Origin: Psammoneis japonica
Lineage: Eukaryota
DNA: 64,000 bases
Direction: 5' to 3'
Assembly: GCA_008632985.1 (NCBI GenBank)
Contig: QPGO01000002.1
Span: 372,001-436,000 of the forward strand
Below are positions 10,770-64,000 of the stretch, one piece after another (within the stretch, counting starts at the first letter, position 1; each line of letters starts with the position of its first letter). The translations under genes and the position numbers were made by a program. The notes under the pieces were generated by a model. It was not told where the DNA came from. It searched no databases and worked only from the letters and a program-made list of their open reading frames with translations.

Positions 10770-11280
10770 GTGAAAGTTTGAGCAATGGCTGAAACTTGCA
10801 TTCCTGTTTGCTCAAACTTGGCAAGTTTGAGCAATTGGTCAAACTTGCAACATTTCTGACACTTCTGCAAGTTTGAGCAATTGCTCAAATGTGTGTCTGC
10901 AAAAACAACCACCATTGCAAGGAGTTGCAACGTGACACAACAACATGTTTTTGAGAATGAAGTGAAAACAATGTGATGCATTGTTTGAGAAATGAGTGTC
11001 GCCATTGTCTAGAATGGCCTCAAACACTGTGTTTCTGTTGCTCCAATTTAGTGCAGAAACCTGCGCAGCACTGTGCTGCAGCATCAGGGCAAATCCCACC
11101 TGAGTGACACATGTGCCTGCAGTTGTGCCTCATTGTGAGGCAGGGGAGTGCAGTGCTGACAAGTTCAGTTGGCAGGCTGACACTGTGTGGCAGTTTTGCA
11201 TCAGCACCCAACACTTTGGACTCGCAATGCATGTTTGAGCAATTGCTCAAAGATCCTGCATGTTTGAGCAATTGGAAGAC
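10770..11280. repeat. Cluster of palindromic tttgagcaattgctcaaa motifs, probably subterminal repeats of a small element
   Basis: Perfect 18-bp palindromes at 10872-10889 and 11234-11251, with variants near 10777, 10826 and 11263. Confidence 0.7.
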
Positions 11281-12418
11281 CCGATCTATTTGGAGGTGCT
11301 TGACAGCTGGACTGCACATCCACCACAATGCACAATCCACAGTGTGGGCCAATGCAGTCTCCTGGCTGTGTTGGCGAGGGCTGTCCATGAACAACATGGC
11401 CTGTTTTCATGGATTGTGCCTGCCACAAAGGAGCAACTTCTCTGCCAGTGACATGGGAGCAGAAGAACTGTTTGACACTTTGACACAGACATGACCCAAA
11501 AATGCACATGGAAAAAGGTCCAATCCCAACAGTTTGATGTCAAACTCACATGGACCACTGCTTGTTCCACAGTGGCAAAAGACTTTTCGTTGTTGTCTGG
11601 CGAAAGTCAGTGAGTGCACAGAAGTTGAGAAATGCACAGAAATGAGGATGGAAACAAACAGCAGTCAATGTGTGTGCCAGCGCCAGTGCCATGCTGCACT
11701 TGTGCATGAAGGATCATGGCCAAACATCATGGCAAACAGTGCAAAGTTTTGTCCGTTCTGCAGTGGAGTCATTGCATGAGATCTCACCCCCCTCAGAACT
11801 CACAAACATGTCGATGCTAAAACCAGCCACTGCACATTGTCACACATGTGAACTCTGATCACAACCCAGATTTTGCACAATCAACTCTTGCACCTCTGCA
11901 ACTTGTGAGACCTCCTCAACACCCACTCAGGAACACAGAGCTGCCATCTTTGTCACAGCCATGGTTGAGAAGCCAGCTTGTTTGCAGCAAGGATGCAGCC
12001 TGTTCTCAGCAAAATAGAAGCAAGAGCATGAGCTGCTTTGTCATGCATTGTGGTCGTGCAGCAGCACTTGTTGTGTTGTGTCAAATGCAGCTCAGCGAGA
12101 AAGCAGCATTTTGCGCATCTCCCACAACATGCACATGGCATCATCCAAGTGATTGATGTTGTGCGCACACCTGATTTGCGATTCATTTTCGTGAATCGCA
12201 AATGAGAGGGTTGTCAGCGCAAAAAAAAAGTTTGCAATCCACTGAAAAAATGTTTTTTTTTTTTTTTGAGTCTCATTCGCATCTTGGAGGACGCACAGAC
12301 ATGAGTTTTTGATGCATAGAAGGTCGGTGGATGCTGTACTCAGTACGAGTGTGACTACTAAAAATAAAAGTATCGCAACCATGAACTCGACCACGTTCAT
12401 TCTACAAACATTGTTTTT

Positions 12419-24267: not shown

Positions 24268-24372
24268 GTATACTTCTGTATTCTCGTTCGTACTTGTGCA
24301 TTTCCTGTGTTTGCCTTACTTCGTTCTTTTCTGATAGAACTTGTGCCTGTGGGGATGTAGTGTACTGTGTCG

Positions 24373-29028: not shown

Positions 29029-29166
29029 AGAGTGACTCAATAACTGATAACTTTAGAAACTGCCATTGAATAATGATACCAAGTCGTGTCCATAGTAATT
29101 TGCGCGAGTCTTGGAACTCCTCTACTGCATCTTTTCCTCTAGCCATCTGTATTCGCTTCACTAGAC

Positions 29167-31433: not shown

Positions 31434-31563
31434 AGAGTGACTCAATAACTGATAACTTTAGAAACTGCCATTGAATAAAGATACCAAGTCGTGCCCATTG
31501 TAATTTGCGAATCTTGGAACTCCTCTACTGCAACTTTACCTCTATCCTTCTGTATTCGCTTCA

Positions 31564-42779: not shown

Positions 42780-45700
42780 GCATCAAAGAAGCAACACGCA
42801 ACAAATGCCAGACCCTATACATGAATTGTTTCATGCAAATGTTTTTGACCCATCTTGCTGCCTGCTTTGTGAGAAGGGAGCGAGTCTTGCTTTTTGACAG
42901 CCAAAGAGAAGCTGGAGGGCGTCTGTGGGATGCGGCTCTCCTCTGCACAGTTTGAAGCTTTCCCCTTTTTAAGCTGGTCATGGCATCCACATTGCATGTG
43001 ATCTCCTGCCTGAGGGCTGTTGTGCCCCCATGTTGCAGTGCCAAACCATGTGATTGCCACAAGAAAGCAAAGCTTGCACCACAGCACCCATTGGCTGCGG
43101 GCACGACAGCTTCTTTGGAATTGTGTGCACACTGTGCATGTCAGAATTCCCATCACCGGCACACTGACTTTTGCAGAGTTGCTCTTGCAGCACCAGAAAC
43201 AGTCAGCAAAGTTGCTGGCAGAGCAAGTGAATTTGTTGCATTGCTGAGCCAGATGAAAAATGGACAAAACACAATGATCCCTCAACAACAGGGTGAAATT
43301 TGATGTCATCAGTGCTGTGTGGTGAAATGAGGACTTTTCACATTGGTCAGTTTCTGGAGAATCACTTGGCAGATTGATCAATCATGCCAGTTGCTCTCTG
43401 CACTGAGAGGAAAGAAGGCAAATCTGCAGCTCTCATTTGCAGAGATGTGATTTTGTGAGAGCATTGCAGCACCTTTTTGCAGCATGGCAGCACGCACATG
43501 AGCACAGATTTGGAGCACCTGGCAGTGTCAATTGGAGCACAAAGAGCATGTGCGCCTCTCTCCAAAAGCTGTGAAAACTGCAACAGCAGCAGGTGGTCGT
43601 GGTGGATCCTGTCAGGAGTCTGCAGTCCAGGAAGCTGGTGAGACAGATTGATGTGGAAACGGCGCTAAAGATGTTGCTGTGAACAGAGCTGTGGCCATGA
43701 GTGACAAGAAGAGCTCTTGATGCAATGCAAAACAGCACCTGCTGGAGCATGCTGCACATTCTTTTGGGAGATTTGTGACTTCACAAATCCAACCTCCAGA
43801 GGCACTGGAATGAGTTGTTCCAACATGGTTGTTTTGGAAACAACACTGCAGCTGTGGAAGAGAGTGGCACAGTGGTGGGCAGAGTTGCCTGGCCCAATGA
43901 CAATGGCCAGGTGGTGCAAACACCAGCTCAACAAAGACCTTCAAGAGCAAGAGCCAAGCAGGCTCAAGACAGGAGCACAAAAGAGTGGAACCAAGTTCCA
44001 GGGCTGTGCATCATGGAGGAACTGTGCAAGTTTTTCTGAACAACAAGGCTGGCGGCAAAGAGCAGCAGCAAGCTGCTGAGGCACTCATGAAAACAACCAA
44101 AGACGAGATCACCAACTGTGCAGGACAACATTTCAACTCAGGTGTCTGTGTGAAAGCTGTGGTTGGGCAACTTGAACAAGCAGGCTTCAACAAAGAAAAG
44201 CCTGCTTTGCCAGCTCCATCTTTTCCCATTGTCTGCATGCACTGTTTTCTGCCATGTCCAAACACACACAACCTCATTTTGCACTCACACAATTGAGCTT
44301 TGACAACAAATGTGTCCATTGGAGTGATGCACTTGTTTGCTGCAAAATGCCATGTGTTGTGGGTGCTGCACACCCTGCAGCTGGGTGTTTTGAGAAACTT
44401 GCTGCTGGGTTGCCAACATCTCCCAAGGGGCACACAAAATCATGTCATTTGTCAAAACCCATCCCAGTTGGATGTGTCAAGACTCAAGCATTGCTGCTCC
44501 ACTGCCAAACTGAGAATCCAGGTGATGCTCCTCTCACAGCTTTTGTCCAACAGAGAACATGCATTCCTCTGGAGCTTGGCTTGGCTTCACCAAGCAAGGC
44601 ATCAATCAGTGGCCAAACTGTGCACTGCTTTCATGATGCCATTCAACAAAGCAGCTCTCTCTTTCTCTCTCCTGCCAAAAAGCACCAGCTGAAAAACAGA
44701 AGCACTGGAACACCAAGGAGTGGAGGTGCTCTGCTCTGATGCCAACAATGATGCCAGCTGTGACAAACATCCATTTTTAGTCTCCTTGGCTGGCGGTGCA
44801 CATCAATTTTGATGAGCCCACAAGCACCATGAAATCTGTCACAGCAACAACTTGGTGGACAATGCATCCAGCAACATCTTGACAGATGTTGCTGGCTTTG
44901 ATCTTTCTCAATTGTGCCTGCCCCCCAGGGGTGTGGCACTGACTCTCTTTGCATTTTTGCTCGTGTGCCCTTCCTGCTGGCAGAGCATCTTTGAAAATGT
45001 GGGCGTCAACTTTTCATGACCCACAATGGCCTTTTTTGTGATTGCAGAGTTTCCCCCAAAAATCAGAAAAGTGCTGATTTGAGCAATTTTGCCAACTCAT
45101 CCCTTCCTCTGCCATGTTGAGCATGTAAAAGCCAGAGCCATTGTGCACTTGCCCAGTCAGAGGTTGCTCATGTGTTTTCTGAGCCTGCTGAACAGGGGAA
45201 TGTGGCCAGACAGCTGTGACAGAATGCTCTGTTGGAGATGCTCCAAGAAGTTCACAGCTGCAGAGTGCTGCACAGCTTGGTCTGCTGTGCCTGAGCTTTC
45301 AGCCAACAAAAAGCCCAGAAAAGCCTTGCTGTTGCCACACCATCTTTTGCTTGAGCTGGGCTGATGATGTTGAAGAACAATCAAGAGTTTTTTGCTCTAA
45401 GACAGTTGCATCAGGCTGTGAGTGCTGCACAGTGTTCTCCCAGTGAGCACCCTGACAACTCTGTTCTTTGAGTGGTGGGCATCTTGAAATGCACCGTTCT
45501 CCATGCTGGCACTGGTTTGGGGCACCCATGTTCTTTGCTGCAGAAACACAGAGAATGCTGGCTACAAATTGGTGCTGCAAGCAAAGATGGTCTCATGTAG
45601 AAAGCAGTTTGCTGCATGACAACAAATCACAGTTCATTCTCTTGAGCATGCTGCTTTGATGTGCTGGCAGAGATTTGTCTGATTGCCTGCCATCAGAACA

Positions 45701-48700
45701 ACAGCCTTGCTGGGGCTTCACTCATGACTGACCTGTTGAGTTGGCATTTGTGCAACATTGGCTCAAAGCCAATGTTGGGGATGCAAAAGTGCAGGATTGG
45801 GTCCAAAAATGGTTGTGGCAGCAGGAACCCCAGAGGGGAAGTCTGTCAGATTTGCTTGCACAAAACACGCATCATGGCAGTGCCTCTGTCTGGTGTGCCC
45901 AGCCTCAAAGCATCATCTGATGTGGCTCACAAGTTGGTGTGGTCACAGCTTTTGGACAACATGGATGCAGCCATGATCTTGGCAGCCTGCAATTTTTGGA
46001 ATGTGCTTGCAGTGTGCCGTGGCAACAACTTCGTTCTTGCACCACATCTGTGCAAAATCTGACTGTCTTTTGGTGTTCCAAAGAAGTCCAAAGCAAAGTC
46101 TGGGGCAGACATGATCCAACTCTGAGTGGGACCTTGCAGTGCTGTTGGCTGTGACAGAACATTTGTTGATCATGCACCACACAAACGTCAAGCACATTTC
46201 AGTGCACTTTCTTTTGCAAAAAACATTTCAAATGCTGCACGCCAGAAATGATGCACTTCAGGAATGGGCACTTGAAGTCAATCAAAAATTTTTTTTTTGT
46301 TGTTGGCAATCATTGACTTGTCAATTGCCTTCTGGTTGTGATGCAGAGCTTGCGTGCAGAATTCCACATGCCCAGCAGTCTCACATGGTGCCCCCCCATC
46401 CAGGGCCAGAGGAGTGCACATGGGAAAAAACCCACTGAACACCAGATTTGAAAGGGCTGTGCAAGTGATGGAAACTGCACTCACTCTCACATCATGTCAT
46501 GTCAGACCTGCAATTTTCTGCACTTTCTAGAGAGCATCTGGTGCCCTCAATGACCAGAGCAGTGCCTGCACTGCTGGCAAATGAATTGTTGTGATGTGCC
46601 CCAGTCTGCTTCATTCCATCTTGCAGTCTCCTTGTTGCTTGTGGCATGACACGCAACAGCCAAGCAGAGCATCAAAGAAAGTGCAACATGGGTGCCACCA
46701 CCAACAAGTGCAACAACCAACAGCTTGTTTGCAGTGTCATGCGTGTGGTCTGCATCAAACTTGTTGTTTGAAACAAAAAGTGAGCAATGCTTTTTTTTGC
46801 AGATTTTCACAAAGGCATCAATCAGTGTCCATGGTCAAATGTTTTGCTTGCCACAAAAGAGCCCAACTGTGTGCCACACCCTCCATGCATGCTCTTGGAT
46901 CACAGCCAAATTGCTGGCCATCTGGCCCCACATTTTCCAATCTAAAGAGTGCACTTTCAATGGGGCAGGTGCCGATTGTCTTGTTGGGATCTTGATGTGA
47001 GGTTGCACAAGAGACAGACAAACACCTCTCTGAGCAAGCTCTGGCAGCAGCTTGTCTGTGGTGTGCTTGCCTCCTGTGGTGTGGTGTGCCACACATGTCT
47101 CCTGTGTTGCAAAGCAAAGCATCACCTTGTTTTGCTTTGGCAAACACCTCACAGGGCATGACACAACAGGAGCAGTTGTCAAAGTTGTCTTCGTGCATCT
47201 CAGCTGACATTTTGCATCTGCTGTGAAACTCCTCTTCCTTGGCATCACAATCAAAATCAGGTTTTTTGCACACATGAGTTCCAGGACAAAGCCCCGCTGC
47301 TCCCATGGCTTGAGTTGTGTCTTGTGTGGCAATTGTGCCAGCATGCACTCTGGAACAATCAAGTCCAGACACTTGGCAGAAGATGAAGCTGAATGTCTGG
47401 ATGACATCCCTGCACCCTTTTTGCCAGTGACGACAGAGAAGGCAATGAGCAAGGCCTCAGGCCCTGCAAGTGAGTCAATCAAAGGCCACAAAGTCTCATG
47501 CTAAAAAATCTCCTTGAAAACTTGTCAAACAATCAGTTCTGTGTGTGGCAGCATGGCAATGTGGTGACAATTCTTCTCCAGAAGAATGCAGGCAGAACAT
47601 GCTCTTGAACTCATGGTCTTGTTGGAGAGAGGATGGATGGAGCAACTGCAGAGCCATGCACTCAAGCCAACTTGTGAGCTTCTTGTTGCAACATGTTTCC
47701 ATCTGCAATTTGGTTCTCTAACAGTTCGGTCATTGGCCTGCACAGTTGAAGACCGTTTTCACCTTGTTTCAAGTCATGAAGCTCCAAGGATGGCCCACAC
47801 ATGTGGCTGATGCAATGGACACTTCCACAGAGGAAAGGTGCAAAGACAAAAAGAAGACATGCAATGAGCAAGAAAAGAACCCCAACAAGAATTCTTCTTG
47901 TCATGCTGCAAGCAATGCTCGTGACAGCAGAAAAGCTTGCCAAAGTCAGCACTTGAGGAGTTTTGGCTTTCAACAGTTGCTGTGACAGTGCACGGTTTGC
48001 AGCTTGCACTTGCTGGTGCAGACCTTCCCATCAGTTGAGAGTCTCTGCATTCCATGGAAAACAAGAATCCCACAATGTTGTCACACCTGTGGGGACCCCA
48101 GCAAGTCTGTGCATTGCCCACAACTGATTTGGCTCTGTGACAGACATGCGGCAGTTTTTCCATCACAAAAACAGCAAATTGACCATGCAGATTGCTGACA
48201 CTGCAATGCTTTTTGTCACCACCTTTCCAGCTGCTTTTCAATGTGAATGGATGGACAGTGGTCTCATGATGAAGGCCCTGCAATGTGGCATCTTTTCGGA
48301 TGTTGTTCAGTCCAACATCTTGTTTGCCTTCTGTGATGTGTGCCTCAAATTTGGTTGCCCTTTGCACAGACAACAACTGTGCCAAGGGTTGCACTGCTGC
48401 ACTGTCACTTGGTTGTTGGACAAAGAACTCCAGCACAGCTGCTGTGAAGCACATGAGCCAAAAGAGTTTTGCTTCTGAGGATTGGGTGCTGAGCAAAATG
48501 AGAGAAGACAAGGAGGAAGACATGGCCATCATGGATTCCACACAGACACAGTCTCTGAAGCAGGCTGCAAGGACAAACTGCTGCTCCCAACACTTTTGGC
48601 ATTTTAGAAGTGCCATCTCAAAGCAACTGGAAATTTACAACTGGTGTTGATCATGGCAGAACTGTGGGCTCCAGTTGGAAATTTGGTCGACACTGATGTC

Positions 48701-49675
48701 TGTTGGATGATTTTGCAAATGAGCTCCAGCAGTCAAGCAGCAATGCCGTCACAGAGCAAATCAGGCAATCCTTGAAAACACAACCACAACATGACTGGCA
48801 TGTTGGGTTTTAGAAGAGTTTCTTGGGCAGCAATGACTGTCAATGCAAGATTCTAAGACACCAATTTTCAATGCTTTGTGGAGCATGATTGGAGTTGGAG
48901 AATCCGCAAAAACGCAACTCAACTGGCATGTTGGGTGGCCCTGTTTTACTGTGTGGGAGTTGCTCAAGCTGCAGCTGCTGTTTCAAGAAATCAAAGCAAT
49001 GTTTTGCTGAGCATTTCCATCAGAAAATGCCTGGAGCAAATTAAGAGTCACAGAAACAAAACCTGGAATCTAGAGTTGTGGCAAGAGTGCACTGTGTGCA
49101 CTGACAAATGGGGCTGCACACATCTCAGACAACAACATTTCAGACCCTCTCGCTTGTGGTTCTCTGATGGGTGGGCATTGTGGACATCTGAAAGGGGAGA
49201 TGGCTTGGCACTCTTTTTTTGTTCCTGGCACCTCTCACTGAACACATGTTTGCTTGACTCCACCAACCTGCAACACATCATTTGTGGTTGTTTTTCACAA
49301 TCAAAGCTTCCCTGTCAACAAAAAAATCACTGAGAAGACATGCCAGTTGCTCTGCTTTTTTGCCAGTTTTTTCTTCCACATTTGGATGCCATGATTGGAG
49401 GCATTTGGGGGGTGTCGCTGCTTGGCAGCAGCGATGCAAGGGCACAATTGCTGCGGCAATTTCTTCCACTGAACCTCGCCAACAGGAGCAGAACAAATGA
49501 CTCATTGAAAACAATCACCAGCAGAACAGCCAGAAAAATGTTGGCACACAACAAACTGAAAAATGGAAATTGTCGTGGTGACCAACACAGGATGTCACTC
49601 GAAAAAGTTGCTCCGTCAGATGGACGTGCAGAGGGGGGATCCCCCCCTTCGCTCGTCAACTTGTGAACACTGCAC
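42780..49675. mobile_element. Long degenerate TpA/CpG-depleted element (unclassified), host of nested insertions
   Basis: About 7 kb nearly free of TA and poor in CG. Continues after the insert at 55339. Confidence 0.6.
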
Positions 49676-50718
49676 TGTCAGCCCATCTGTCTGCATGTTG
49701 CATGATGGACAGACTGGATGCAGATGATGGCTGGACCATTTGGACAGACGAGCAGATCTCTCTGAGATCTGCTTCTCACTTTCTCATCTGCTGGTGCTCG
49801 TGTCATCACAGTCCTGGCACTTTGGGGAGTCTTTCACACCTCTGTCCTCCATTGCCTTCCGCATTCTGTCAGGTTGTGGCCTTGCGCTGTGCCACAGACC
49901 TCTGCGCCAAGCTTTCATTTCGATTCATTTGTTTTGTGAGCCGATCGAGCCAGCCTCATCGTCTGATCCGACAACTTTTTGTCTCGCTTTCCCGGCATTT
50001 TTCACGACCGTCCAGATTTCTACGCGTGTATGACCAAAAATGGCTCCACCGACGCGTTCCAGGTCTAGGTGGGACCTCGCACTGCTGAACTGTGACATCG
50101 ATAGTTTTTTGAATCTCGTCGTATGTCGCGCACGTAGAATTCTACGTGATTTTTTGAAATTTTGTGTCATTTTACGGTACACTTATCGAGCGATCCGTCC
50201 AAAAACTTTTGACATTTTTTGTTACAGCGCGATTCTATAATGTCTTAAGAATCGCGTAGGGCAGGTGCATTTGCAAAAACGTCGTGTGGTAAGAGGCATG
50301 CCGGCAATTGTACCACAAACTTGGCCGTTTATTTAATGTTGAAGATAAACATGTCCATTTTAATTAAATAAGACTGACTAAATAGAAAGGTCACCATTTG
50401 CCAATTTTGGGCCAAAAATTGAGTTTTTTGCTTTTGGCATTAGTGAAAACTAGAGCAAAAATGCTTTCAAACGATGTGTCGGTCATTTTGTGGGTCCGAT
50501 TTCTTGAAAAATGGCACCAATCTTGGGGTTTCCATGGGATCGCATGCCGGACGCGCGCACTCTTCAAAATGCGCGTAAATTGCACACCACGCACTTTGTC
50601 AGCCACGTAAGAAGCTGCTGTTGTTGCCGCTGGTACACTTTTGGCAGCCATTTTTATTTTTTTCAGAAAATAGAACAGCACACCATTTTCCCGCAGCAGC
50701 AACTGTCTTTCGTCCACA

Positions 50719-53019
50719 ATGGCAATGGACGACGACGATGCCGGCAACAACCGGTCTGACTCAGTTGGCAGCCTGTATGCAAAGCTCAGAGTCAAGCCTC
50801 ACCCTTCACGTGAGGATGCTCTTGAGATGTGCAAGGAATTTCTTCAAAATGCATTTGACAGCCCGAAGTGTGTGGATGTTCGGGGGCGGCCAACGAGGTG
50901 CGAATGTTTGCATGCTTTTCGGACGCGGACAGAGTGGCTTCCCTGCATTGCAAAGTTCATGTTGGATGAGGTGGCATGCAAGAGCAGAGACGACAGGGAG
51001 AGCCACATCCTGCAACAATGTCGGTCATGCCAGTCCACGAAATTTCTTCCCGTTCCAGCTGCGGGCAAGCCACCGGGCTCCGACGTGTTGACATGCAAAA
51101 ATGCTTTCAAGCACATTGTGAATGTACGTCAAAAAGCTGACAGAAGGGTGAAAGAGGCGATTCAATCAAACATGGCAACGTCGCATGGCAACAAGGGCAA
51201 ACCATCAAATGCAAGAATGAAGGCAGACGTGGAAACGTCGTTGCACGTTTTTTTCAAAGACATGATGGAACTTGCTTCTCCTCGAGCCACAAGGTTTGTT
51301 CGACTAGAAGTCGGGGTGGGGACCAGGGATGATGATGAGGAGCTGCTGGAGCTCCCAACCCATTGGACGGCTCGCCGACTGTGCGGCAAATGGGTTGGCG
51401 AACGAGGATGGAAAGCCAAGCTCAAGAATGACAAAGGGGCGATTGAATTGACACAAGCAGCAGAAGACGTGGAGCTGCAAAAGACAGTTGTTTTTGAAAC
51501 TTTCCGTTCTTTCTGGAAGAGAAGCTGCCCAAAGCCAGTTCTTCCTAAAGCTGGGGAGGACATTTGTTCTGACTGCTTTGTGCTGTCGCATGCTTTTCGT
51601 TGCTTCTCGTCGCCTCGTCCTTTGAACAGCAGTGACACTCCAGTGAATGGACATCCAAGGAGAGAGGAGGCAGTGGCAAAAGCTCAAATCCACATCCAAC
51701 AGGCTGTTGCTCAGAGAGAACTGTTCAATTCTCTCACTGCCGAATGCCTTGAACAGGAACTCATTGACGTGCTTGTTGGCGACTGTTCCGAAAACATGGA
51801 CCTTCCACACCTTGGCAATGAGCAATCAGGTGACACTTGCTGCTTTTCTCCATTGAATGTAAATTGTTTTGGACTTGTCAACATGAAAGACAACTTGCTC
51901 CAAGCATGCGTGTGCCACGAGGGCCAAGGTAAAAAAGGAGGCAACAACGTCGCATCACTCATTGTGAAGCATCTAAAGGACAAAGGGTGTTTGGAGGTTG
52001 ATGATGATGGAACAGCAAAGCAAATTCGAGCAAAGCTTGCTGTTGTCATGGACAACTGCTCGGGTCAGAACAAGAACAGGATGGTTCTTCGGCTGGCCCT
52101 CTACTTGGTTGAGCGGGGATTCTGTCAAACCGTGCAGTTTGTGTTTCTTGCAGTCGGGCACACAAAGAACCCTTGCGACCGGATGTGTGACATCTTGTAA
52201 AAGCCACACAGAGACTCCAATGTCTATGCCTTCAAGCAAATGATGGAATTGTTGAATGAAAACGAGAATGCTGCCGCCACCGCTGTGGACGAGGAAGACT
52301 TCCAAGACTGGGATAAGAAACTCGATTCATTGCATCGACGCTTCGCCCCCAGCACCGTCCACAAGAGCCACATCTTTTCTGCAACAAAAGCCTCGCCAAC
52401 TGACATGAAAATTCAGGTGTCTTGCCGGGAGGAGGATCAAGGTGAGACTGCCACAAGAGAATTCAAAAAGCCTGGGACCAACAGCAACAGAATGGAGCTC
52501 TTGCAGGCGGCACCCCAGGTCATTCCATTTCCTGGAATTCCCGACATTAAACAAATAGAGCTTGGGACAAAATGGAGGAAGCATGTTCCAGTGGAGCATC
52601 AGGATGAGATTTGCCCCATGCCACCACAAGCAATGATCGACAGACACAACAAGTCAAAAGCAGACAAGGCCAAAAGGAGCAAAAAGACTGTTTCCAATTC
52701 GAGATCAAGACAATCTCCCACTGCCGCTGCTGCTGCTGCATCCACTCAACCCCCAGCTGTTCCTGCCACTCAACCACATTTTACAGCCCAGCAACCTGCA
52801 GCACCAGCTGCTGCTGCCGCCCCGCCGCCGCCGCATTTCGTCAACCCGAATTTCGTCAACCCGCATGGTCTACAACAACAAATGCTTCCGATTGCGGCAT
52901 TGCATCCAACTGCAGCTGCTGAAGTGCAACAGCACATGCAAACCCTTCACTCCACTCTTAACTGTTCTACTATTGAGGAAATTTTGGCGCGTCCACATGG
53001 TCCCTGCTGGCACGGTTGA
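50719..53019 (+). pseudogene. Sola-type transposase, one in-frame stop (52198-52200), Tyr-depleted
   Basis: EDICSDC, LPHLGNEQSGDT..FSPL, HEGQGKKGGNNVASL, DNCSGQNKN and GHTKNPCDR. The ORF at 52240-53019 is in the same frame. Confidence 0.85.
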
Positions 53020-53550: not shown

Positions 53551-56079
53551 AGCGGCGTCTCCATGGTGCTGCTGCGGTTTGCGGTGCGCGTGATGGTTTT
53601 TTGCTTTTTTCTCAAAAGTAACCATCACGTCTGTCTGTTTTCCATGGTTTCCTTTTTATTTAGTCAGTCTTAAATTCTCGTACTACGGAGCTCGCACGTA
53701 GAATTCTACGGGCCCAATGTCACACGGAGTCCCACCCAGGGCTGGAACGCGTCCACCAACTAAAACCATGGCGTCTTCCGACCCCACAAAGCCCGCTCTT
53801 CCGTCCATCACAGAGATCCACTGTGAATTCGAGGCACACACAACGATGCCACATCTGCATGACTGCCTGAATGCAATTCATGCAGACTCCACAACTGATC
53901 TTGACCCGTTCTTTGACGATCCAGAGCATGCGCAACCCAAGAAAGATTTCGTGGACATGCTTCGTGATTGCTTCATCAACGAAGCGTTTCCACCCCACAC
54001 AGCTGATCCTGCGGATGTACAGTCAATCAAGACAATTGTGGATCAAGCCCCGTTCTGACTCATTGACTCTCAAAGACCTCGTCCAGTCCGTTTGACGACT
54101 CCGATCTTGTCAAAGATGATCAAGACGAATCTCCAGAACAATGAGCAATCTCTGTTCATTCTCATCTCCACCCAACGTGTGTGTGTTGATCCGGACATGA
54201 CATGGAACTGTTGCAGTTGGAACAAATTCTCTCTTGCACCCTGACAGCAGAAACAGCAGCCTCCGTCTCCTTCTCAGAAAGCTGCAGGACCTGCTGCATT
54301 GACTGTGAATGACTCAGTCAATGTGCTCAATGCACACGCGTCGAGTCACGCTCCGCCTTCTACAGCTTCTGCCAAGCCATCTGGAAGTGCTGCATCTTCT
54401 GTGACATCAAAACACCTCTTCAATCCGAACACACTGCCCAAAGATGTTCGTGCACGCTGCGACCGCAAAGAAGACGGAAAAGCCACTCTTCGGAGCTCTC
54501 TCGTCCCTTGTGACCATGGATTCCGTCACTGTGTTGATGCATCCGATCGCATCATCCTTGACGATGGCACCCTTTTCATCATGAGCTCGACTCCTGACCA
54601 GAAAATGTTGTTCAGGGAACCTCCTGCATGTCATGACGACTCTCCCCCTGGGGTGCGAGCATGGCACCAAAATTTCCAATGTCATGCCTTTGATTCAGGA
54701 TGCCACATGCATCCATTGTGGTGTTTTGCTGAGGACCACGGTGGTGAGAAGGGTTTCGAGATCAGAAACGGCAAGGATGATGACTTGCCTCAACGCATGT
54801 GCATCCACTGCAAGGAAGCTCAGAGCTCTCTCCACAAAATCCCATCCAAGTCGGACATGTTCCCCAAGAACAGCAAACATCATCGGATTGTTGCATCATG
54901 CTGCGGCAATGGATGCAAGGCTCTCAAGCAGATTGTCTGCGAGAATCATCCTGCTTTCGACCACGATGCTGCTGGGCTGGTTGACTCCCATCCTGTCCAA
55001 GGCAATCGATCATTGACGGACTGCCACATGATCTTCAATGATTTCCTGCAGCTGCGCGCCTGCATTTTTGATGCGGACTCTACATTGAATGATCCACGAG
55101 AGATGACCATCTTTGTCAAGAACACCAAGTGCTCCAAGTTCTCATCTCATGCCACCAGAGATGAACGGAAGTCTCCAGCTGTGCAGAAGAAGTGCGCGGA
55201 TGCACAGATTGTCGAGACTCTCTCTGATTTCCTCCGCCAACCGGGTGGCCCATCCCTTGCCACTCGTGCGATGCAATCCAATCCCCGCCATAAATGGAGT
55301 CGAGCAGCTGAGGATGCGCGACCTTTGGAATTCTGTCATGCACTGCAAAATTGAAATCAGCACAATCCATGACCGCCCTTGGAATTTTTTCTTTGCAGTG
55401 TCGTCTTTTCATTGTCAAGGCATCAGATCAACAACAACAATTTACAGCACTGGCCAAGTTTGAGTGCACCTCATGTCATGTGTTGAATTTTTGGAGCTGT
55501 GTTTGACCCAATTCATGCATGCTTGAAAAATCGATGGAAGATAAAAGTTGTCAAGCATCAATCACCAACACATCACAACATTGTTGCGAACTTGCGCACA
55601 AGATTGATTTTCTGTTGTGCCCATTGAGACAACCAAACATGATGATGACTTTGGTTCATGACATGCACGAACTAAAATTTTAGTTCAATTTTTGAAAAAT
55701 TGGAAAAAAATTCACAGGAATGTTGTGAGATGTGTTGTTGGTTTAGCACTGAAGCATGGAAATGCACAACAGGAAGCAACAGCAGTTGCTTTCCTTCCCA
55801 TTTGCTTTTTTTCATTTGAGTCACTCACAACTTCGTTGACTCTCCTGTCTCGACATCATCTCTGAAGCATGAAGCTCTCATCTCTTTGCATGGGACAAAC
55901 CGCGCGGCAGTTGTGTGATGTTTCATTTGCCGCCTCGACAAGAGGTGGCAGTCCCATGAGGATTGGGAAGGCCAGAGGCAATTTTGTAACAAGGTTGCGG
56001 GTGACCATGGCACAAGAAAGGGAAGGATGAAGTCTTTTTTGGTGTTCACTGTGCACAGCTGCATGCTGTGGACTGACAA

Positions 56080-56805
56080 ACAGTGCTGCATGCATCCAGC
56101 TGCAGTTGCCCCAGCTCAGACAACATTTCAGACCCTCTCGCTTGTTGTTCTCTGATGGGTGGGCATTGCGGACATCAGAAAGGGGAGACAGCTTGGCACT
56201 CTTTTTTTTTTGTTTCTCCGGCACCTCACACTGAACACATGTTTGCTTGACTCCGCCAACCTGCAAGACATCGTTTGTGGTTGTTTTTTACAATAAAAAC
56301 TTCCCTGTCAACAAAAAATCACTGAAGATGTGCCAGTTGCTCTGCTTCTTTTTGCCAGTTTTTTCTTCCATTTGGGTGCTGTGATTGGAAGCATTTGGGT
56401 GTTGTCGCTGCTTGGCAGCAGTGATGTTGAGGCACAATTGCCATGGTCGAAAAACACTTTCTGCCGGCCGGCAATTTTTTCCCACCAAACCTCACCAACA
56501 GGAGCAGAACAACGATTCATTGAAAACAATCACCAGCAGAACAGCCAGAACAAGGTTGGCATGCAACAAACTGAAATGGAATTTATCGTGGTGACCAACA
56601 TGAGATCTCACTCGAAAAAGTTGCTCCATCAGATGGACGTGCAGGGGGGATCCCCCTTCGCTCGTTAACTTGTGAACACTGCACTGTAAAATTGAAATCA
56701 ACACAATCCATGACCGCCCTTAGAATTTTCTTTTTAGTGCCTTCTTAATTAAGGAGTCAGATCAACAAAAACAATTTTTTATTGTCAAGTTTGAGTACAC
56801 CTTAC
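56080..56805 (+). repeat. Second, uninterrupted copy of 49090-49675 plus 55339-55470
   Basis: Shared ctcagacaac..catttcagaccctctcgcttgt...gaaaaagttgctcc.tcagatggacgtgca...gtgaacactgcactg and aaattgaaatca.cacaatccatgaccgccctt. Confidence 0.88.
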
Positions 56806-58967: not shown

Positions 58968-59347
58968 AACTCATAACGCATTGATGGTTTGCACAGCTGG
59001 TCTCGTTTGCGGAGTTTGAAGTTGGAGAGTGGAGCGGTGAGCGCAATGCTAACGGAGCTCGAAATAGCTCGTATGGTCGATTTTGAGGTACTACCGTATG
59101 AATACGGATCGAAAGCTCTTGATCTCAGCTTTTCAGCGATGTATGTATCAATAGCTGGCAATGCTTCCATGACATTTTTTTAGCCTTAAACTAAATTAAC
59201 GGCTTTAACAGTTTACTATGAGTTTTTTGACCGTTGAGATAATGCGCGAAATAACATGCCAAGACAGTCACGTGACTGTCAAGCATGTACAAAATTACAC
59301 AAACTATTTTAAGCGCTCAAACAGGGTTCGAATTTGAAAAACTCTTG

Positions 59348-61688
59348 ATGGTGGCAACAAGAGCAAAGCAAAGCAGAGTCACAAAAAAATGGCGCGGCCG
59401 AAACCAACCAAAGACGTCAAGGGCGATGAGGCCGCAGAAAAGTTCTGCGATTGGCTTTCCAACCCTGCAGAGTCTCCCATTTTCCACGAGTGCTGCACCC
59501 AAGCAACTGCAAAGAACCTGCGAAATGTCAGTGTCTGCAGAAGCCAAGAGCAGTGTTGGAGAACAACGACAGCTCCTTCGTGAAAATGCTGAGCAACTGC
59601 CTCGTGCACTTTGAAAGACTGGGGTGCACAGAAACACATGCCACTTTTGCATCCTAGATTGAACATTCTGCTTTTGTTCAGAAGCATGCGTGCAAGGGTG
59701 GTTGTCGCTGCTTTGTTTTGCCGCTGTTGAAAGCTGACGCTGACGACGACGAGGAGGAGGAGGGGACACCACCAGATGATCATCTGGTCTGCTGCAGTGC
59801 CCTCCTTGCATTGCTGGGCAAAGGGAGAAAGTTCTGGAGAACTGCCAAGTTGAGTGCAAAGAGCAACGTCTTTCCGAAACACGATCTCAAAGGGAAGACT
59901 GGGCAGAACGCGAACAAGACGCTTGCACCCGAAATGCACACAGTGCTTCGCGCATGTTTTGATGACACAAAGGAACTTTCTGAACCACGCACAACGAGAC
60001 TGGTCAGAGAAGAGACAGGTGTTGGCTTGAGAGATGAAGACACGCACGCACATGACTCACCTCCCACCATGAAAAAGCATGGATCATGCAAACGACACGG
60101 ACAAGAAAATGGCTGGACCCTCAAATCGAACCACAAAGGAAAGTTTCTCAAGGCGGAACCAATTGAAGGAGAAGAGCAGCAACCAATGTGCTCCTGGGCA
60201 CAATTTTGCAAGTTCTGGAAAAAGAGCTGTCCTGAAATTGTCGTGAGAAGGCCCACTCGTGACATCTGCAACGAATGCTGCAAGTTCGCAAATGGCTTCA
60301 GGATGAAAGTGATGAAAGAAAAGACGGGGGGTGAGAGCAATGACGATGACAACAAGGAGGAAAGCAATGATGATGAAGAAGATGGAGCAGATGCAGAGGT
60401 GAGAATGAAAGAGATCGAAGAACAGGAAAATGAAATGTTGCACGCTGCAAAGCACGTCGAGTGGGCTCGAAAGCAATGGACACTTGTGCAACAGTGTGTT
60501 TCGGAAGCAACAGAACACGTGAAAGCCAACAAGGCACACGGCAAGCGAACTCATGCAAGGATTGGTTGCTGTTGTCAAAATGGCGGGCTTCCACATTTTG
60601 GGGCGGATCAGCCAGGGGAGATGCGCTGCTTCTCTCCTTTGACGATCAACATGTTTGGGGTTGCCGATCCTTCGGGGAAAAAAGTTGTGACAGTGACGGA
60701 AGATGAGTTCAAGGATTTTTTGCATGCGTGCATCTGCCATGAGGGCACTGGACAAAAGGGAGGTGACAATGTTGCTTCCCTTGTGATGAAGCACTCACAT
60801 GATGGTGGATTGTTGGATGTCAGGAAGGGTCCAGGCGGAAAGCTTGCATTGATTTTTGACAACTGCATCAGGCAAAACAAAAACAACACGGCATTGAGAC
60901 TTGCTTCACACCTGGTGGAACAAGGACATTTTAAAGAAGTGAGCATTGTTTTTTTGACAAAAGGGCACACCAAGAATGCCTGTGACAGGCTCTTCAAAAG
61001 CCTCAAGCAAACTCACCATGACAAGAACATCGGCATGTTCCGCAAACTCTTGACAGATTTGGACACCTCCGAATGTGTTCAGGTCGTTGAAGTGAAGGAG
61101 GAGGATTTTGTGGGGTGTGGAGCGCACTTTGACCAACATTGCAAGAAGCACAGCACAGCTGCAAAGTGCCACTGCTTTGAAGTGACAGATTCTTCGGAAC
61201 CTGCGGCAGCAACAATGAAAGCAGCAGATGGCGAGCCTGAAGTTAGCAAGGATCTCAAGAAGTGGAAGACAGAATCAATCGAGCAACGAAAACAGAAGTT
61301 GCAAATGTCACAACCACATGCCTTGACACCTCCAGGTGTCAAGGACACAAAGAAGGTCAAGCTTTGTGCCAAGTGTTGGCCGCTTCTTGATGAGGCAGAC
61401 CAAGACGAGATGTGCCCTCATCCTGGAGACGACATCCTCAATTGCATTGCAAAAAGCAAGAGAGAGAAGCAGAAGAACAAGCAGGTGGAGAGCACTGAGC
61501 AGATGGTGCGAAATGAGAAAAAGAAAACTGCCAAAGCCAGCGCAATTCTTTTGGAGAGGGGCACAAATAAAAATCAACAGCAGTCCTTGTGCACACACAA
61601 ACTTTGTGCAATGTTTTGTGTTTGCACTTGCATCACATCACATCACTCAAAAATCTTGCAAGTGCCATTTTCTCAAAACAAATTTTGA
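59348..61688 (+). pseudogene. Second, divergent Sola-type transposase (decayed; no Tyr in the 656-aa frame)
   Basis: RDICNEC, LPHFGADQPGE..FSPL, HEGTGQKGGDNVASL, DNCIRQNKN and GHTKNACDRLF. The N-terminus is frameshifted and TIRs were not identified. Confidence 0.85.
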
Positions 61689-62149
61689 GAGCTTGAGAGC
61701 ACGCGTCAGCACCTTTTCATGTGGCCAGTCTCATGTGAACATGTCTCAACGCATCATTGTGATGATGTTCAATGTCATCAAACACCACAACCACCTGCAT
61801 CCCACAGTGGCACCATTGCCTGCAGTGCTGCACCAATGGCTGCTCTGATGCAGCCACTCTAGCCACTCTAGAGAACTCAGGGGTGTGTCAGTCCTGGCAA
61901 AAGTGGTGCCAGAGGGCAGCATGCGAGCATGTTGTCAAAGCCAAAAAAAACAGCAACATTTGGCAAACTCATTTTTGAGTGGTCAGGAAAATGGAGGACA
62001 AGGAGCGAGGGAAGTTTGCGAAGCCAAGAACTCCTCCAGTGCAAGCACGAGAAGTTTGCAGTGCATCAGGGACCCCGCACAAGAAAGTTTGGGCTCCCCA
62101 AGGTGTGAAAAAGCAAGAAGTTTGCAAAGAACGTGTTTGTGCCCCCCTG

Positions 62150-62508
62150 GGGCGCCAGTGTGACCTCAGGCAGGACTCTGTGCAGCATGTGCGGGCCCGC
62201 AGAATTTTGTGTGCCAGCTCTGCAACAAAGTTGTTGAGCAACAAACATGTGAGATGATTGACAACAGAAAAAGCAAGGCACAACTTTGCAGGCACATCTC
62301 CTCCTGTGCCTGTGTGTGTTCTTTTGCACACCCAACCCACTTTTTTTTGTGCAGATGAAGAAAATGGAGAGCCTTTGGCTTCACAAGACAGGGTGCATGA
62401 AACAATTGGGTGCACAAAAAATGTGTGTGTGCAGCATGTGGCACGATCCAAAAAATCTCATGCCACACTCCAGCACCAGCGCTGGGCCTCACCTGGAGCT
62501 GGGGTGGG
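62150..62508 (-). mobile_element. MITE-like relative of the Sola-type element
   Basis: gggcccgcagaattttgtgtgccagctc and cacctggagctgg match the two element ends in reverse. The interior aligns with 9480-9770. Boundaries are approximate. Confidence 0.7.
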
Positions 62509-63549
62509 AGAAAGGCCCCGGCATGTGAGAATGGTGCCATGTGGAGCCAAATGTTGTGCCACAGAATCAGCAGCAATGACATGCATGTGCTCTTAAAATT
62601 GTGTCAAAGCAAGAGTGACTTGTGCCACTCACTTGTTGTCTGCACAGCTTGACATGCCAAAAAAACAATGACATGGATTGACTCATCTTGTTGACTTTGC
62701 ATTGCATTTTGCACAATCTGGGTCATCCACCACAATCTTGGTGCTCAAATTGAAGGTGTGAAACTTTTGCTGGTGCTGTGTGTGCTTTGTTTTCACCTCA
62801 GTTGTGTGTGTCAAACAATTGTGCCCCTTTGTGCATGACACATGTCACAGGCTGCTGTGAGCAAGTCAAATTTGCAGACAGACATGCAGAGACTGTGGAG
62901 CAACATGCAAGCCAAGAAGCAGCAGCCAACATGGCTCTGTTTGACAAAAACAGATGACCCCCAATGCAGAGGGGTGTGAAAAGCACAAGTGCAAGCATCT
63001 GGGTTGTGAGCTGCTCTCATGTGGTGGCGTGAGCTGAAAAGGTGGTGAGGAAAGAGGAAAAACTTTGGCCCCTGTTGACTCATGTGGCAGCTGTTGACAG
63101 TTTTTTGGAGCTTGGCAGCCATTGCTGGTGCAAGCCTGTGTGTGGAAGTGAGACAGTGTGGTGCTGCAGCAAGAGCCAGCTGGCACATTTAAACAGCCAG
63201 CTCAAAGATGATTGTTCCATGTCATGCCGGCACAGATGCAGAGCTGCACAACATTGTTGAAGAACAGAACAGAGCCCAAATTCAAGCTTGTCTTGCATCT
63301 TCTTGTTCAAGATTCAACGACTGGCAAAAAAATTCTTTTTCAATGAACTGATGTTCAAACGTTGTTTTGATTTTTTGTCAGTGAGGCACGTGCTTGTGTC
63401 ATGCAGGGTCCCCATCTTTTTGGCAAAAAAAAGTGTGTGGAATTTGATGAGGAGCAATTCTGGCAAAAATGCATGCCATCAATTGTCGTTGTCGTTTGTG
63501 TGGTGTGGCACTTTTGTTGGTGTGGTTGTGTCCTCCCTTGTCTGACACA

Positions 63550-63928
63550 GATGCACTCCAGCTCCAGCAGGTGGGACCTTGCACCACTGAACTGTGACAT
63601 CAAGAGGTTTTTGAATTGCGCTGCATGTTGTTTTTGAATTGCGCTGCATGTTGCACATGCAGATGGCTGCATGTGACATTCTACAAAATTGTTTCATGCT
63701 CCCTGTTTTGCAAAACCAAAGGCTTTCTGTCAAGAATGAAAGTGCACTGGGGGCACACTCTTTGATGTCTGCTTGAGTGTGAAGGAGGAGATGCATTTGC
63801 AAAATTGCTTCTTTTTCTGTTGGCGATCATTCACATTTTCATTGCTTGACAAATTCAGCGTGGAGCTTGCACACAGAATTCTGCGGGCCCAATGTCACAC
63901 GGAGCCCTGCTTGGGGCTGGAACCCATC
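63550..63928 (+). mobile_element. MITE-like relative of the Sola-type element with 4-bp TSD (CACA)
   Basis: Starts gatgcactccag and ends ctggaacccatc. caca at 63546-63549 and 63929-63932. Confidence 0.8.
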
Positions 63929-64000
63929 CACACCTCACAATGTGCTGGCCAGGTGTGTGCAGAATTGCCGGCTGCCATTTGTGCTGGCTGTTGCCAATGT

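Follow-up and report, generated by a model that had tools for sequence, protein, structure and literature searches.

The window analyzed here, a stretch of 64,000 nucleotides (64 kb) from Psammoneis japonica, carries six islands in which the dinucleotide TpA is nearly absent, together with two DUF7869 transposase-like genes (Table 1). Island borders, which were set by the gaps between TAs, are sharp; the TAs at 42816 and 42818 are located at the left edge of I3 but outside it. The six islands add up to 22,189 bp and hold 59 TA, compared to about 880 expected, with a TpA o/e of 0.03–0.04 and a CpA/TpG o/e of 1.8–1.9. In I3, TA o/e ranges from 0.016 to 0.07 and CG o/e from 0.05 to 0.39.

Table 1. 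Islands, genes and sites discussed in the text, by position in the 64-kb window.
Feature	Position	Strand	Description
Island I1	4349..5459		1.1 kb, 0 TA; CG partly depleted
Island I2	7960..12316		deeply degraded; 8 TA, 6 of 8 in YTAR
Island I3	42819..50020		degenerate repeat, the interval of the sequence-only reading; 18 TA in 7.2 kb
Residual TA (GTAA)	45126..45127		TG in run X1
Residual TA (GTAG)	45598		TG in run X1
Refractory hexamer TCTAGA (TYTARA)	46526..46531		further examples with TA at 10080, 11010, 49071 and 61869
Shared segment, I3 end	49132..49678	+	85% identity to 56120-56687
Block between I3 and I4	50021..50776		TA and CG content normal; member of a very high-copy repeat
DUF7869 transposase-like gene P0002	50719..52710	+	Pfam PF25273 E = 2.9e-13, tblastn; P0002 spans 50674-52200
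Island I4	50777..52782		shallower decay; 12 TA; CG o/e ~0.6; almost co-extensive with DUF7869 gene
Island I5	53762..56584		TA o/e 0.03-0.1, CG o/e ~0.6; end homologous to I3 end
Paralogous segment, I5 end	56120..56687	+	partner of 49132-49678
Island I6	59311..64000		reaches window end; 9 TA, 7 of 9 in YTAR
DUF7869 transposase-like gene P0001	59658..61688	+	open 676-codon frame; Pfam PF25273 E = 1.6e-17

The two DUF7869 ORFs scored 64.2 and 50.3 bits against PF25273, for which the gathering cutoff is 26. Homologs were found in 1,614 library proteins at E ≤ 1e-3, the best spanning residues 17–626, and the named relatives belong to Nitzschia inconspicua and Pseudo-nitzschia. At the P0001 locus homology extends from 59448 to 61586, and I6 continues for at least 2.4 kb past its ORF. 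Copy number and conserved D..D.. motifs suggest that both genes encode transposases. The best named matches of the kinase and the transposase came from the diatoms Mayamaea, Thalassiosira, Ditylum, Nitzschia and Pseudo-nitzschia (24–31% identity), and that of the sugar dehydrogenase from a labyrinthulomycete (62–63%). Taken alone, these matches point to a stramenopile and probably to a diatom. As to the identity of I2, I3 and I5, the 137 island ORFs of at least 70 aa gave no credible Pfam match at E ≤ 0.05; the matches obtained were Cys-rich artifacts and a weak THAP9_C (45160–45396), and a weak DUF3474 match in I1 looks spurious from its translation. Two ORFs of 369 aa and 286 aa gave no lead in Atlas, where the best score was 0.79, self-BLAST revealed no LTR or TIR pair, and Rfam gave 0 matches.

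The composition of the islands indicates what became of the missing TA. Per kb, the loss of 37 TA and 38 CG equals a gain of 73 TG plus CA, and G+C is unchanged. TA is the sole NA step depleted, AA, CA and GA being spared (AA frequency is 0.084 in islands vs. 0.080 outside), so that the loss is strictly TpA-specific. TG and CA are about equal in 7 of 7 segments tested, both ORFs included. TA loss is true mutation in place, from TA to TG or CA, as the transposase-like ORFs, the paralogous copies and a second read set show (see below). The GC dinucleotide gained 21.6 per kb, near the loss of TAC/GTA. The balance of tetramers is not exact, since more TGC/GCA is estimated to have been gained than there was TAC/GTA to lose, and it is used qualitatively only. 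ADAR hyper-editing and polymerase eta "WA" mutagenesis produce A-to-G changes with T or A at −1. Polymerase eta was rejected because it also mutates AA, which is not depleted here.

Methylcytosine deamination affects the same islands and yields the same TG and CA products. CG o/e in the islands is 0.04–0.6, and differences of CG vs. TG/CA are seen between copies and in comparison with run X1. However, CpG decay cannot remove TA, and it accounts for no more than the CG part of the pattern. The TA process has a flank rule of its own (described below), whereas residual CG sites show no effect of the +2 base (p = 0.76), and TA o/e falls to 0.03–0.15 while CG o/e stays at 0.6–0.8 in blocks of the window and in metagenome locus L051. 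It is a separate process that saturates faster than CpG decay, though both act on the same islands. L051, where TA loss is strong and CpG nearly normal, probably belongs to another organism; it has 0 RTAY among 16 residual TA, but no effect of A at +2.

The transposase-like ORFs reflect the same changes at the protein level. The 676 aa of P0001 include no Tyr, with Cys at 5.3% and His at 5.0%, and P0002 has 0.4% Tyr and 5.3% Cys; the median contents of 150 homologs are Tyr 3.8, Cys 2.4 and His 2.7. An alignment of 51 sequences has 13 columns in which Tyr is conserved; there, P0001 carries six Cys, one His and one Arg but no Tyr, and P0002 carries Cys at six of nine covered columns and again no Tyr. 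The joint count of 12 Cys vs. 1 His gives independent backing for a TAY to TGY direction. Conserved Cys and His columns are retained in both ORFs. Sense-strand T-to-C changes, such as Leu to Ser and Val to Ala, are also present.

Given their sharp borders, the islands might be explained by no mutation process at all, but by an assembly or base-calling artifact, by foreign DNA composition or by selection on transposons against TA, a frequent transposon target site. This is scarcely credible. A 16.4-kb contig from run X1 (word depth ~60) reproduces I3, joining host flank and island over 42000–48459 with 9 letters differing, although X1 is possibly the source sample and not a fully independent read set. 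In addition, conserved Tyr are replaced in the dead ORFs, copies differ by CA/TG double changes, and 78 of the 80 loci related to the transposon are not TA-poor. The paralogous ends of I3 and I5 differ over 539 aligned columns by seven such double changes, eight differences of CG vs. TG/CA and three of TA vs. TG/CA, showing that the process acts on individual copies after duplication. Over 42819–48459, all seven letters at which the window and X1 disagree fall on CG, TA or CA/TG steps. This comparison hints at differences in about 2 of the 11 TAs and 3 of the 35 CGs that remain, compared to 0 of ~5,500 other island positions. In the high-copy repeat, CA is seen in 59% of the depth at the TA of 50238 (ATAA) and in 34% at that of 50257 (GTAG). 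X2 and X3 had almost no coverage of the window, and no RNA data set was listed for it.

The TAs that survive in the islands are not a random sample. YTAR accounts for 33 of the 59 (56%), followed by 13 RTAR, 11 YTAY and 2 RTAY, whereas the 1,651 TAs outside islands comprise 276 YTAR (16.7%) and 525 RTAY (31.8%); YTAR is enriched (Fisher, p = 2.9e-11) and RTAY depleted (p = 1.6e-7). A second baseline, made up of 300 kb from 78 non-depleted loci in which relatives of this transposon reside (17,959 TA), has 19.2% YTAR and 28.9% RTAY. In I3 alone the contexts are YTAR 13, YTAY 3, RTAR 2 and RTAY 0, and YTAR at 13 of 18 TA has a binomial p of 2.9e-7. The sequence-only reading had counted about 35 residual sites in the most degraded stretches, three quarters of them YTAR and none RTAY, which is what the three deepest islands contain: 35 TA, 26 YTAR (74%) and 0 RTAY (p = 2.2e-13). 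The sites it named are also correct, those at 10080, 11010, 46528, 49071, 59655, 61860 and 61869 being CTAG and that at 49042 TTAA. It had further proposed that a background-like distribution over the NTAN contexts would speak against the pattern, and the residual TAs are not background-like. The YTAR bias is thus confirmed. Both surviving RTAY sites are GTAC (51125 and 54018) and are located in less degraded islands. If the residual TAs had arisen by random back-mutation of TG and CA in the islands, 21% YTAR would be expected, and this null was rejected (p = 3.6e-10).

A strand-additive Poisson model of TA exposure by context fitted acceptably (deviance 19.1 on 14 df) and assigned an exposure of 2.28 to TAY vs. 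0.73 to TAR, a ratio of 3.1 (bootstrap 2.3–4.3; LRT p = 1.6e-14). The TAY target motif proposed from the letters alone therefore holds as far as TAY is lost about three times faster than TAR; it is a preference only, and the +2 base is the stronger determinant. YTAR sites themselves are ~77% depleted relative to background density. A at +2 is found in 64% of residual half-sites vs. 28% outside (p = 2.8e-16). Expected counts presume that the elements once had the composition of the background or of their relatives, and on this footing sites with two TARA halves (TYTARA) are barely depleted (11 observed, 16.5 expected), those with one half are strongly reduced (39 vs. 217), and those with none are 98.6% lost (9 vs. 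644). TYTARA density is 0.67–0.83 of the undepleted level. In model comparison, the best three-class model (AIC 110.5) describes the data better than TARA against the rest (127.7), Y against R (162.4) or a context-free model (219.2), and the second baseline gives an agreeing context result. TAGA is among the most protected contexts, and CTAG among the best survivors, above all as TCTAGA. The best description of the surviving context is TYTARA, of which the YTAR enrichment is a coarse view. The data consist of 59 sites in one window and 18 elsewhere.

The same pattern could be produced by a back-reaction rather than by a target motif, if residual TAs were mostly re-created by context-specific G-to-A (C-to-T) mutation at TGRA/TYCA. 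Deep islands have retained no smaller share of their YTAR sites than shallow ones (0.24 vs. 0.18), so that some of the residual TAs may belong to an equilibrium or regenerated class. The two TA/TG polymorphisms against X1 are also both found in TARA halves that have R at −1. Nevertheless, we regard re-creation as the main source of the pattern as improbable. Uniform back-mutation is rejected over the TARA classes (p = 4.7e-41), and the near-normal TYTARA density is natural under protection but a coincidence under regeneration. Moreover, the graded loss (survival lowest for RTAY, then one-sided sites, then YTAR) is visible already in shallow islands, and the replacement of Tyr by Cys over His, together with the GC gain, gives an independent forward TAY preference. 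Regarding the X1 polymorphisms themselves, GTAA to GTGA and GTAG to GTGG run in the direction disfavored by the rule and could equally be G to A in TGRA. TTAC/TCAC between the paralogs and TTAT/TCAT in the repeat family, one case each, likewise differ in the disfavored way.

Taken as protection, the residual TAs are probably the footprint of a TpA-specific, strand-symmetric A:T to G:C transition process that acts in situ on silenced transposon copies. Its direction, dinucleotide specificity, strand symmetry, per-copy action and context rule can be read directly from the comparisons above. Such a process would convert TA to TG or CA in silenced transposon copies where they are located, at a rate set by the two bases 3' of the adenine or, equivalently, by the dinucleotide that lies 5' of the opposite-strand thymine. 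TAY followed by a non-A base is lost fastest, a purine at +1 or an A at +2 gives an intermediate rate, and TARA is hardly lost. Since TARA is refractory, TA survives where both strands read TARA, as in TCTAGA and TTTAGA.

A-to-G change at UA is a typical product of RNA adenosine deaminases, and I4 nearly matches the extent of its ORF. It could be thought that transposon transcripts underwent A-to-I editing by an ADAR- or ADAT-like enzyme and were then copied into DNA. We consider this very improbable, because sense-strand TG equals CA in both ORFs and sense T-to-C changes are present, I6 is much longer than its ORF, and the elements resemble DNA transposons, with no reverse transcriptase found in the ORF Pfam scans. 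ADAR prefers UAG, whereas TAG followed by A is protected here. ADAR-type hyper-editing was rejected for similar reasons: ADAR acts on RNA, and strand asymmetry and G at +1 would be expected.

Among the known systems that come close is repeat-induced point mutation (RIP) of ascomycete fungi, which is also a transition hypermutation limited to transposon and repeat DNA, with sharp borders, a dinucleotide preference, action on each copy in the genome and destruction of coding capacity. RIP is described as C:G to T:A mutation, chiefly at CpA, that makes TpA and AT-rich DNA. Here the change is A:T to G:C at TpA, so that TpA is removed, CpA and TpG are made and G+C stays constant. In place of a CpA to TpA shift with TpA excess, the islands have a TpA o/e of 0.03–0.04, and the replacement of Tyr by Cys or His corresponds to TA to TG/CA. 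RIP is triggered by sequence duplication and depends on a RID/DNMT4-type protein; the very high-copy repeat at 50021–50776 is TA-normal in this copy. Diatom DNMT4 is described as related to RID and without assigned function (PMC9998398).

As for the agent of the TpA-directed process, our best guess, which we hold tentatively, is enzymatic attack on the TpA adenine in DNA. The adenine would be deaminated to hypoxanthine, which pairs with C, and the mark that distinguishes silent elements, whatever it is, would guide the enzyme to them. The resistance of TARA would follow if purines stacked 3' of the adenine make it harder to flip out. A TadA-like DNA adenine deaminase is one candidate, beside thymine modification and biased T:G repair. 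TadA/ADAT enzymes and TadA-derived editors share the A-to-G change, T (U) at −1 and a favored pyrimidine at +1. A UACGA motif is reported for ecTadA/ABEmax, and the engineered editor ABE8e-YA follows the order YAY>YAR (PMC8052359, PMC12528748). These enzymes differ from the process inferred here in accepting C at −1 (YA), whereas the −1 base is strictly T in the islands and CA is spared. Their substrates are single-stranded loops or the DNA of R-loops, and natural TadA is not known to edit DNA. Nor do the counts point to a special role for G at +2, TACG (1 observed, 108 expected) being no more depleted than TACC (1 vs. 121), TACT (2 vs. 142) or TATC; TARA resistance dominates instead. The sequence-only reading had stated that the window encodes no such enzyme, in agreement with the finding of no deaminase Pfam family among 145 ORFs of at least 110 aa and 137 island ORFs of at least 70 aa.

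An attack on the adenine at TAY and an attack on the thymine at RTA are indistinguishable in these data because they are the same double-stranded event. A TET/JBP-like oxygenase acting in silent chromatin could thus make 5hmU, 5fU or a further modified base that mispairs with G and leads to T-to-C change. There are precedents: in the telomere repeats of trypanosomes, base J takes the place of the T that precedes A, the 5hmU of dinoflagellates favors TpA, and 5-formyluracil is mutagenic towards T to C. On the other hand, we know of no such oxygenase or base in diatoms, the window yields a single 2OG-oxygenase signal, a generic match below threshold (18657–18986), and a pyrimidine run 5' of the thymine would be a harder stacking explanation than a purine run beside the adenine. 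Overall, we judge thymine modification distinctly unlikely.

Biased T:G mismatch repair in methylated DNA is also unlikely, if less so. A glycosylase or endonuclease (TDG, MBD4 or Vsr-like), which normally restores C at deaminated 5mC, would also cut T from replication-error T:G mispairs at TpA, and TA to CA/TG would become fixed only in methylated DNA. The islands are indeed CpG-decayed and presumably methylated, the outcome is strand-symmetric, and TA loss outpaces CpG loss, as expected if most deaminated CpGs are repaired. The second-best context of TDG is a T:G mispair followed by A. In Escherichia coli, very-short-patch repair, a T:G-directed repair thought to turn TA words into CA and TG words, is held responsible for the scarcity of CTAG. 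However, that system is bacterial, genome-wide and tied to Dcm, and it depletes CTAG, whereas CTAG and TCTAGA survive best here. In addition, a near-total and strict loss of TA, with TT/AA untouched, would need a huge context preference for a side reaction, and L051 combines strong TA loss with almost normal CpG.

The full text of freely accessible papers, taken as main articles, contained no report of TA-depleted transposons in diatoms or algae, and only papers on fungal RIP, ADAR and base editors were retrieved. No published description of an A:T to G:C process at TpA was found, and it appears to be so far undescribed. Transposon-directed hypermutation has until now been known as cytosine chemistry, namely RIP, APOBEC editing and 5mC decay. 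If a counterpart changes A:T to G:C specifically at TpA in genomic DNA, eukaryote genomes would be subject to a mutational force of a new kind, and possibly to a new genome-defense enzyme. To our knowledge, all current adenine editors derive from one evolved tRNA enzyme; a natural DNA A-to-G enzyme with a defined flank rule would be of interest to base editing. The context rule can be used as a signature to find the same process in other genomes, supplies a substrate/non-substrate pair for biochemical assays, and allows otherwise unrecognizable transposons to be "de-mutated" and classified.

It is possible, although doubtful, that the genome defense of this lineage includes a naturally occurring DNA adenine deaminase targeted to chromatin, or a mutator of equivalent effect directed at TpA. 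If so, nearly all TpA of a silenced transposon would be turned into TpG or CpA, and quickly on an evolutionary scale. This would destroy Tyr codons and signals that contain TA without ever creating an in-frame stop, and G+C would remain constant. Two metagenome contigs suggest that such a defense is present in at least one further organism. In chemical terms it would mirror fungal RIP, with TYTARA as its non-substrate.

Dinucleotide observed/expected ratios (o/e), computed in 1-kb bins, separate ordinary window DNA (TA o/e 0.4-0.87, CG o/e about 0.8-1.2) from interspersed TA-poor blocks, in which TA o/e is 0.013-0.07, CG o/e 0.04 to 0.66, and both TG and CA reach roughly 1.8-2.2 times their expected level, with G+C remaining at 0.45-0.51. 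Consecutive TA lie up to 1,277 bp apart, and borders set from TA gaps define six islands totalling 22,189 bp (I1 to I6, see table). Per kb, islands differ from the DNA outside by -37 TA, -38 CG and +73 TG+CA; this gain matches both losses, and lost TA and CG are therefore accounted for as TG and CA. Since AA is not depleted (0.084 in islands, 0.080 outside), a T before the A is strictly required. TG equals CA in each island and also on the sense strand of both transposase-like genes, which rules out editing of sense RNA.

Coordinates of islands, genes and repeats in the window
Feature	Coordinates	Remark
Island I1	4349-5459	
Island I2	7960-12316	
Island I3	42819-50020	Interval of the sequence-only reading
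Island I4	50777-52782	
Island I5	53762-56584	
Island I6	59311-64000	
DUF7869 transposase-like homology, I6	59448-61586	tblastn
DUF7869 transposase-like homology, I4	50719-52710	tblastn
Paralogous ends	49132-49678 / 56120-56687	
SET-domain ORFs	1775-2752; 2698-3477; 12422-13414 (-); 57615-58970 (-)	
Tandem duplication	27634-29673 / 30033-32088	95.6% identity
UDP-glucose/GDP-mannose dehydrogenase-family genes in the tandem duplication	ORFs 27676-29025, 30075-31430	
1,152-codon open frame	20809-24264 (+)	Strong T-over-A skew
Internal repeats of this frame	21238-22653 vs 22351-23751	78% identity
Inverted repeat pair	3-633 / 24060-24816	About 83% identity, 24 kb apart

The sequence-only reading had held that surviving TA sites are mostly YTAR, and this context bias is confirmed. 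Fifty-nine TA remain in the islands (YTAR 33, YTAY 11, RTAR 13, RTAY 2) and 1,651 lie outside (YTAR 276, YTAY 445, RTAR 405, RTAY 525). When NTAN contexts are compared, island sites are not background-like: YTAR makes up 56% versus 16.7% outside (Fisher p = 2.9e-11) and RTAY 3.4% versus 31.8% (Fisher p = 1.6e-7). The same reading had counted by eye some 35 sites, three quarters of them CTAG, CTAA, TTAG or TTAA and none RTAY; all eight coordinates it named are correct, and the three deepest islands hold 35 TA, 26 of them YTAR and none RTAY (p = 2.2e-13). YTAR also accounts for 13 of the 18 TA in the island part of that reading's interval (p = 2.9e-7). As a second baseline, 78 metagenome loci with non-depleted relatives of the resident transposon have 19.2% YTAR among 17,959 TA. 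If residual TA came from random back-mutation of TG/CA in the islands, 21% would be YTAR; this null is rejected (p = 3.6e-10).

A strand-additive model, in which each strand acts independently by the base following its A, describes the tetramer counts, 16 in all, adequately (deviance 19.1 on 14 df) and gives 0.73 for TAR and 2.28 for TAY, a ratio of 3.1 (2.3-4.3; LRT p = 1.6e-14), with no difference between C and T at +1 (p = 0.21). The TAY target motif proposed earlier is thus real as a preference, but it is just threefold, and YTAR density in islands is also down to 0.23 of background. The +2 base outweighs the +1 base: A stands there in 64% of residual half-sites versus 28% outside (p = 2.8e-16). 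Sites with two TARA halves number 11 where 16.5 are expected (ratio 0.67, or 0.83 in deep islands), those with one 39 where 217 are expected (0.18), and those with none 9 where 644 are expected (0.014). The rule is accordingly refined from YTAR to TYTARA; TCTAGA occurs five times in islands. On hexamer counts, a model without context had an AIC of 219.2, one separating Y from R 162.4 and one setting TARA against all other contexts 127.7; the lowest value, 110.5, belonged to a three-class model (TARA 0.04, a single one of the two features 1.47, neither feature 2.75). Under uniform back-mutation, the classes by number of TARA halves would hold 43.9, 14.2 and 0.9 sites, which the data reject (p = 4.7e-41). 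By survival data alone, protection by the 3' R-A of a strand's A is indistinguishable from protection by its 5' T-Y; it is the products of the change that tell the two apart.

The direction of change can be read from the two DUF7869 transposase-like genes (Pfam E = 1.6e-17 and 2.9e-13), whose named relatives come from Nitzschia inconspicua and Pseudo-nitzschia. P0001, the 676-codon open frame in I6, has no Tyr, 5.3% Cys and 5.0% His (medians across 150 homologues: 3.8%, 2.4% and 2.7%). That this frame is open is no sign of selection, because TA to TG/CA changes cannot make an in-frame stop. P0001 was aligned with P0002 from I4, P0102 (a Tyr-poor metagenome homologue) and 48 homologues at least 600 aa long from P0028-P0099. 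At the 13 Tyr-majority columns P0001 has six Cys, one His, one Arg and no Tyr, and P0002 six Cys and no Tyr, with TGY, CAY and CGC as codons. Conserved Cys columns are retained in 8 of 9 cases, conserved His columns in 4 of 4 in P0001 and in 3 of 3 of those covered in P0002. At a Tyr column 94% conserved, the P0001 codon is CGC, and some CG may hence derive from TA. Across both genes Tyr codons became Cys 12 times and His once (p = 0.0017 versus 1:1). Deep islands gained 21.6 GC dinucleotides per kb and lost a similar amount of TAC/GTA, 22.9 per kb. In a high-copy repeat, window TA at ATAA and GTAG reads CA in 59% and 34%, respectively, of the depth of contigs assembled from read set X1. The Tyr-to-Cys bias, the GC rise and these CA variants all agree with TAY becoming TGY, in other words RTA becoming RCA on the opposite strand.

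Aligned over 539 columns, the paralogous ends show 58 differences, including seven adjacent CA<->TG double changes, eight CG<->TG/CA and three TA<->TG/CA; such a double change is the expected outcome when one ancestral TA or CG decays independently in two copies. A 16.4-kb X1 contig (word depth about 60) spans the host-island border (42000-48459) and differs from the window at nine letters, seven of them in the island: three CG->TG, two TA->TG (45127, 45599) and one CA->TG pair. This contig rules out an accident of assembly, but as X1 may be the source sample it does not answer every objection. TA loss is DNA-level mutation in place, which affects individual copies and stays within transposon islands; the process is a TpA-specific, strand-symmetric A:T to G:C change governed by a rule on two flanking bases.

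It is also separate from CpG decay. TA and CG o/e are 0.03 and 0.63 in block 54001-55000, 0.015 and 0.57 in block 60001-61000, and 0.04-0.15 and about 0.8 in the islands (418-2551, 4934-6024) of L051, a metagenome locus with relatives of the resident transposase. At residual CG sites the +2 base has no effect (p = 0.76), and C is slightly over-represented at +1. In another such locus, L068 (1.5 kb, whole contig TA-poor), CG o/e is 0.27. Residual CG in the deep islands (7960-12316, 42819-49600, 61700-64000) has a relative excess of CGCA and CGTG and none in CGTA context; this absence is what conversion of neighbouring TA would produce by altering CG flanks.

Several results sit uneasily with the simple rule. 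YTAR survival does not drop with depth (0.24 in deep, 0.18 in shallow islands). Both TA/TG differences from X1, GTAA->GTGA and GTAG->GTGG, run in the disfavoured direction, unless they reflect G->A mutation in the lineage of the window, which is possible; the disfavoured side also includes one TTAC/TCAC variant (paralogous ends) and one TTAT/TCAT (repeat family). The 16 residual TA of L051 comprise YR 6, YY 7, RR 3 and no RTAY, and among them +2 A enrichment is absent. Both TA of L068 lie in GCTAGC. Given these misfits, some of the residual TA may form an equilibrium class, and the fine rule may differ between organisms.

Host genes of the window include kinases, four SET-domain ORFs, two tandem sugar-nucleotide dehydrogenases, a transportin, an ankyrin-repeat protein and a WS/DGAT-type protein, with diatoms as best named relatives and a labyrinthulomycete for the dehydrogenase; the host is probably a diatom. 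Two SET-domain ORFs adjoin islands, one about 100 bp from I2 and the other between I5 and I6. The 1,152-codon frame has no Pfam match. Summed X1 contig depth rises from about 60 to 10,000-160,000 at 49668-50500 (about 1,800 contigs overall), which indicates a diverse repeat family of very high copy number. On the left, up to 50020, the repeat lacks TA yet is rich in CG, as judged from the copies that could be aligned; on the right, from 50021 to 50776, both dinucleotides are at normal levels. Where the window has TG at 49795-49796, 68% of X1 contig depth has CA.

As to the agent, we tentatively put first an attack on the adenine of TpA, which would be deaminated to hypoxanthine; a purine stack 3' of the A could hinder base flipping and so confer TARA resistance. 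A TadA/ADAT-like enzyme had been suggested, and the likeness is fair but partial. Published work reports a UACGA motif for RNA editing by ecTadA/ABEmax (PMC8052359), a YAC preference for ABE3.1 and the order YAY>YAR for ABE8e-YA (PMC12528748), whereas in the islands -1 is strictly T, G at +2 has no special role and TARA resistance is the most striking feature. In keeping with the sequence-only reading, Pfam found no deaminase family among window ORFs. Biased T:G mismatch repair in methylated DNA is an unlikely source, and attack on thymine, with oxidised T mispairing with G, somewhat less likely still. A generic 2OG-Fe(II) oxygenase match at 18657-18986 (+) deserves mention only in view of thymine oxidation; it is sub-threshold (22.0 bits, cutoff 23) and is not a TET/JBP match. 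The remaining probability falls to agents outside these three. DNMT4, kin of the fungal RIP protein RID, is reported to occur in many diatoms, with unknown function (PMC9998398); this family would not explain TA loss, because it does cytosine chemistry.

A full-text search of the main texts of open-access papers turned up no account of transposons depleted in TA and enriched in TG/CA, whether in algae or in other organisms; its matches concerned fungal RIP, which runs opposite to island TA loss, ADAR editing and base-editor engineering. Among 80 related metagenome loci only L051 and L068 are TA-poor and the other 78 are not, and Tyr is below 1.5% in only 6 of 270 homologous proteins, from three clusters. 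This rarity among relatives marks the process as lineage-specific rather than inherent to the transposon family. We regard it as transposon-directed hypermutation with a so far undescribed chemistry.
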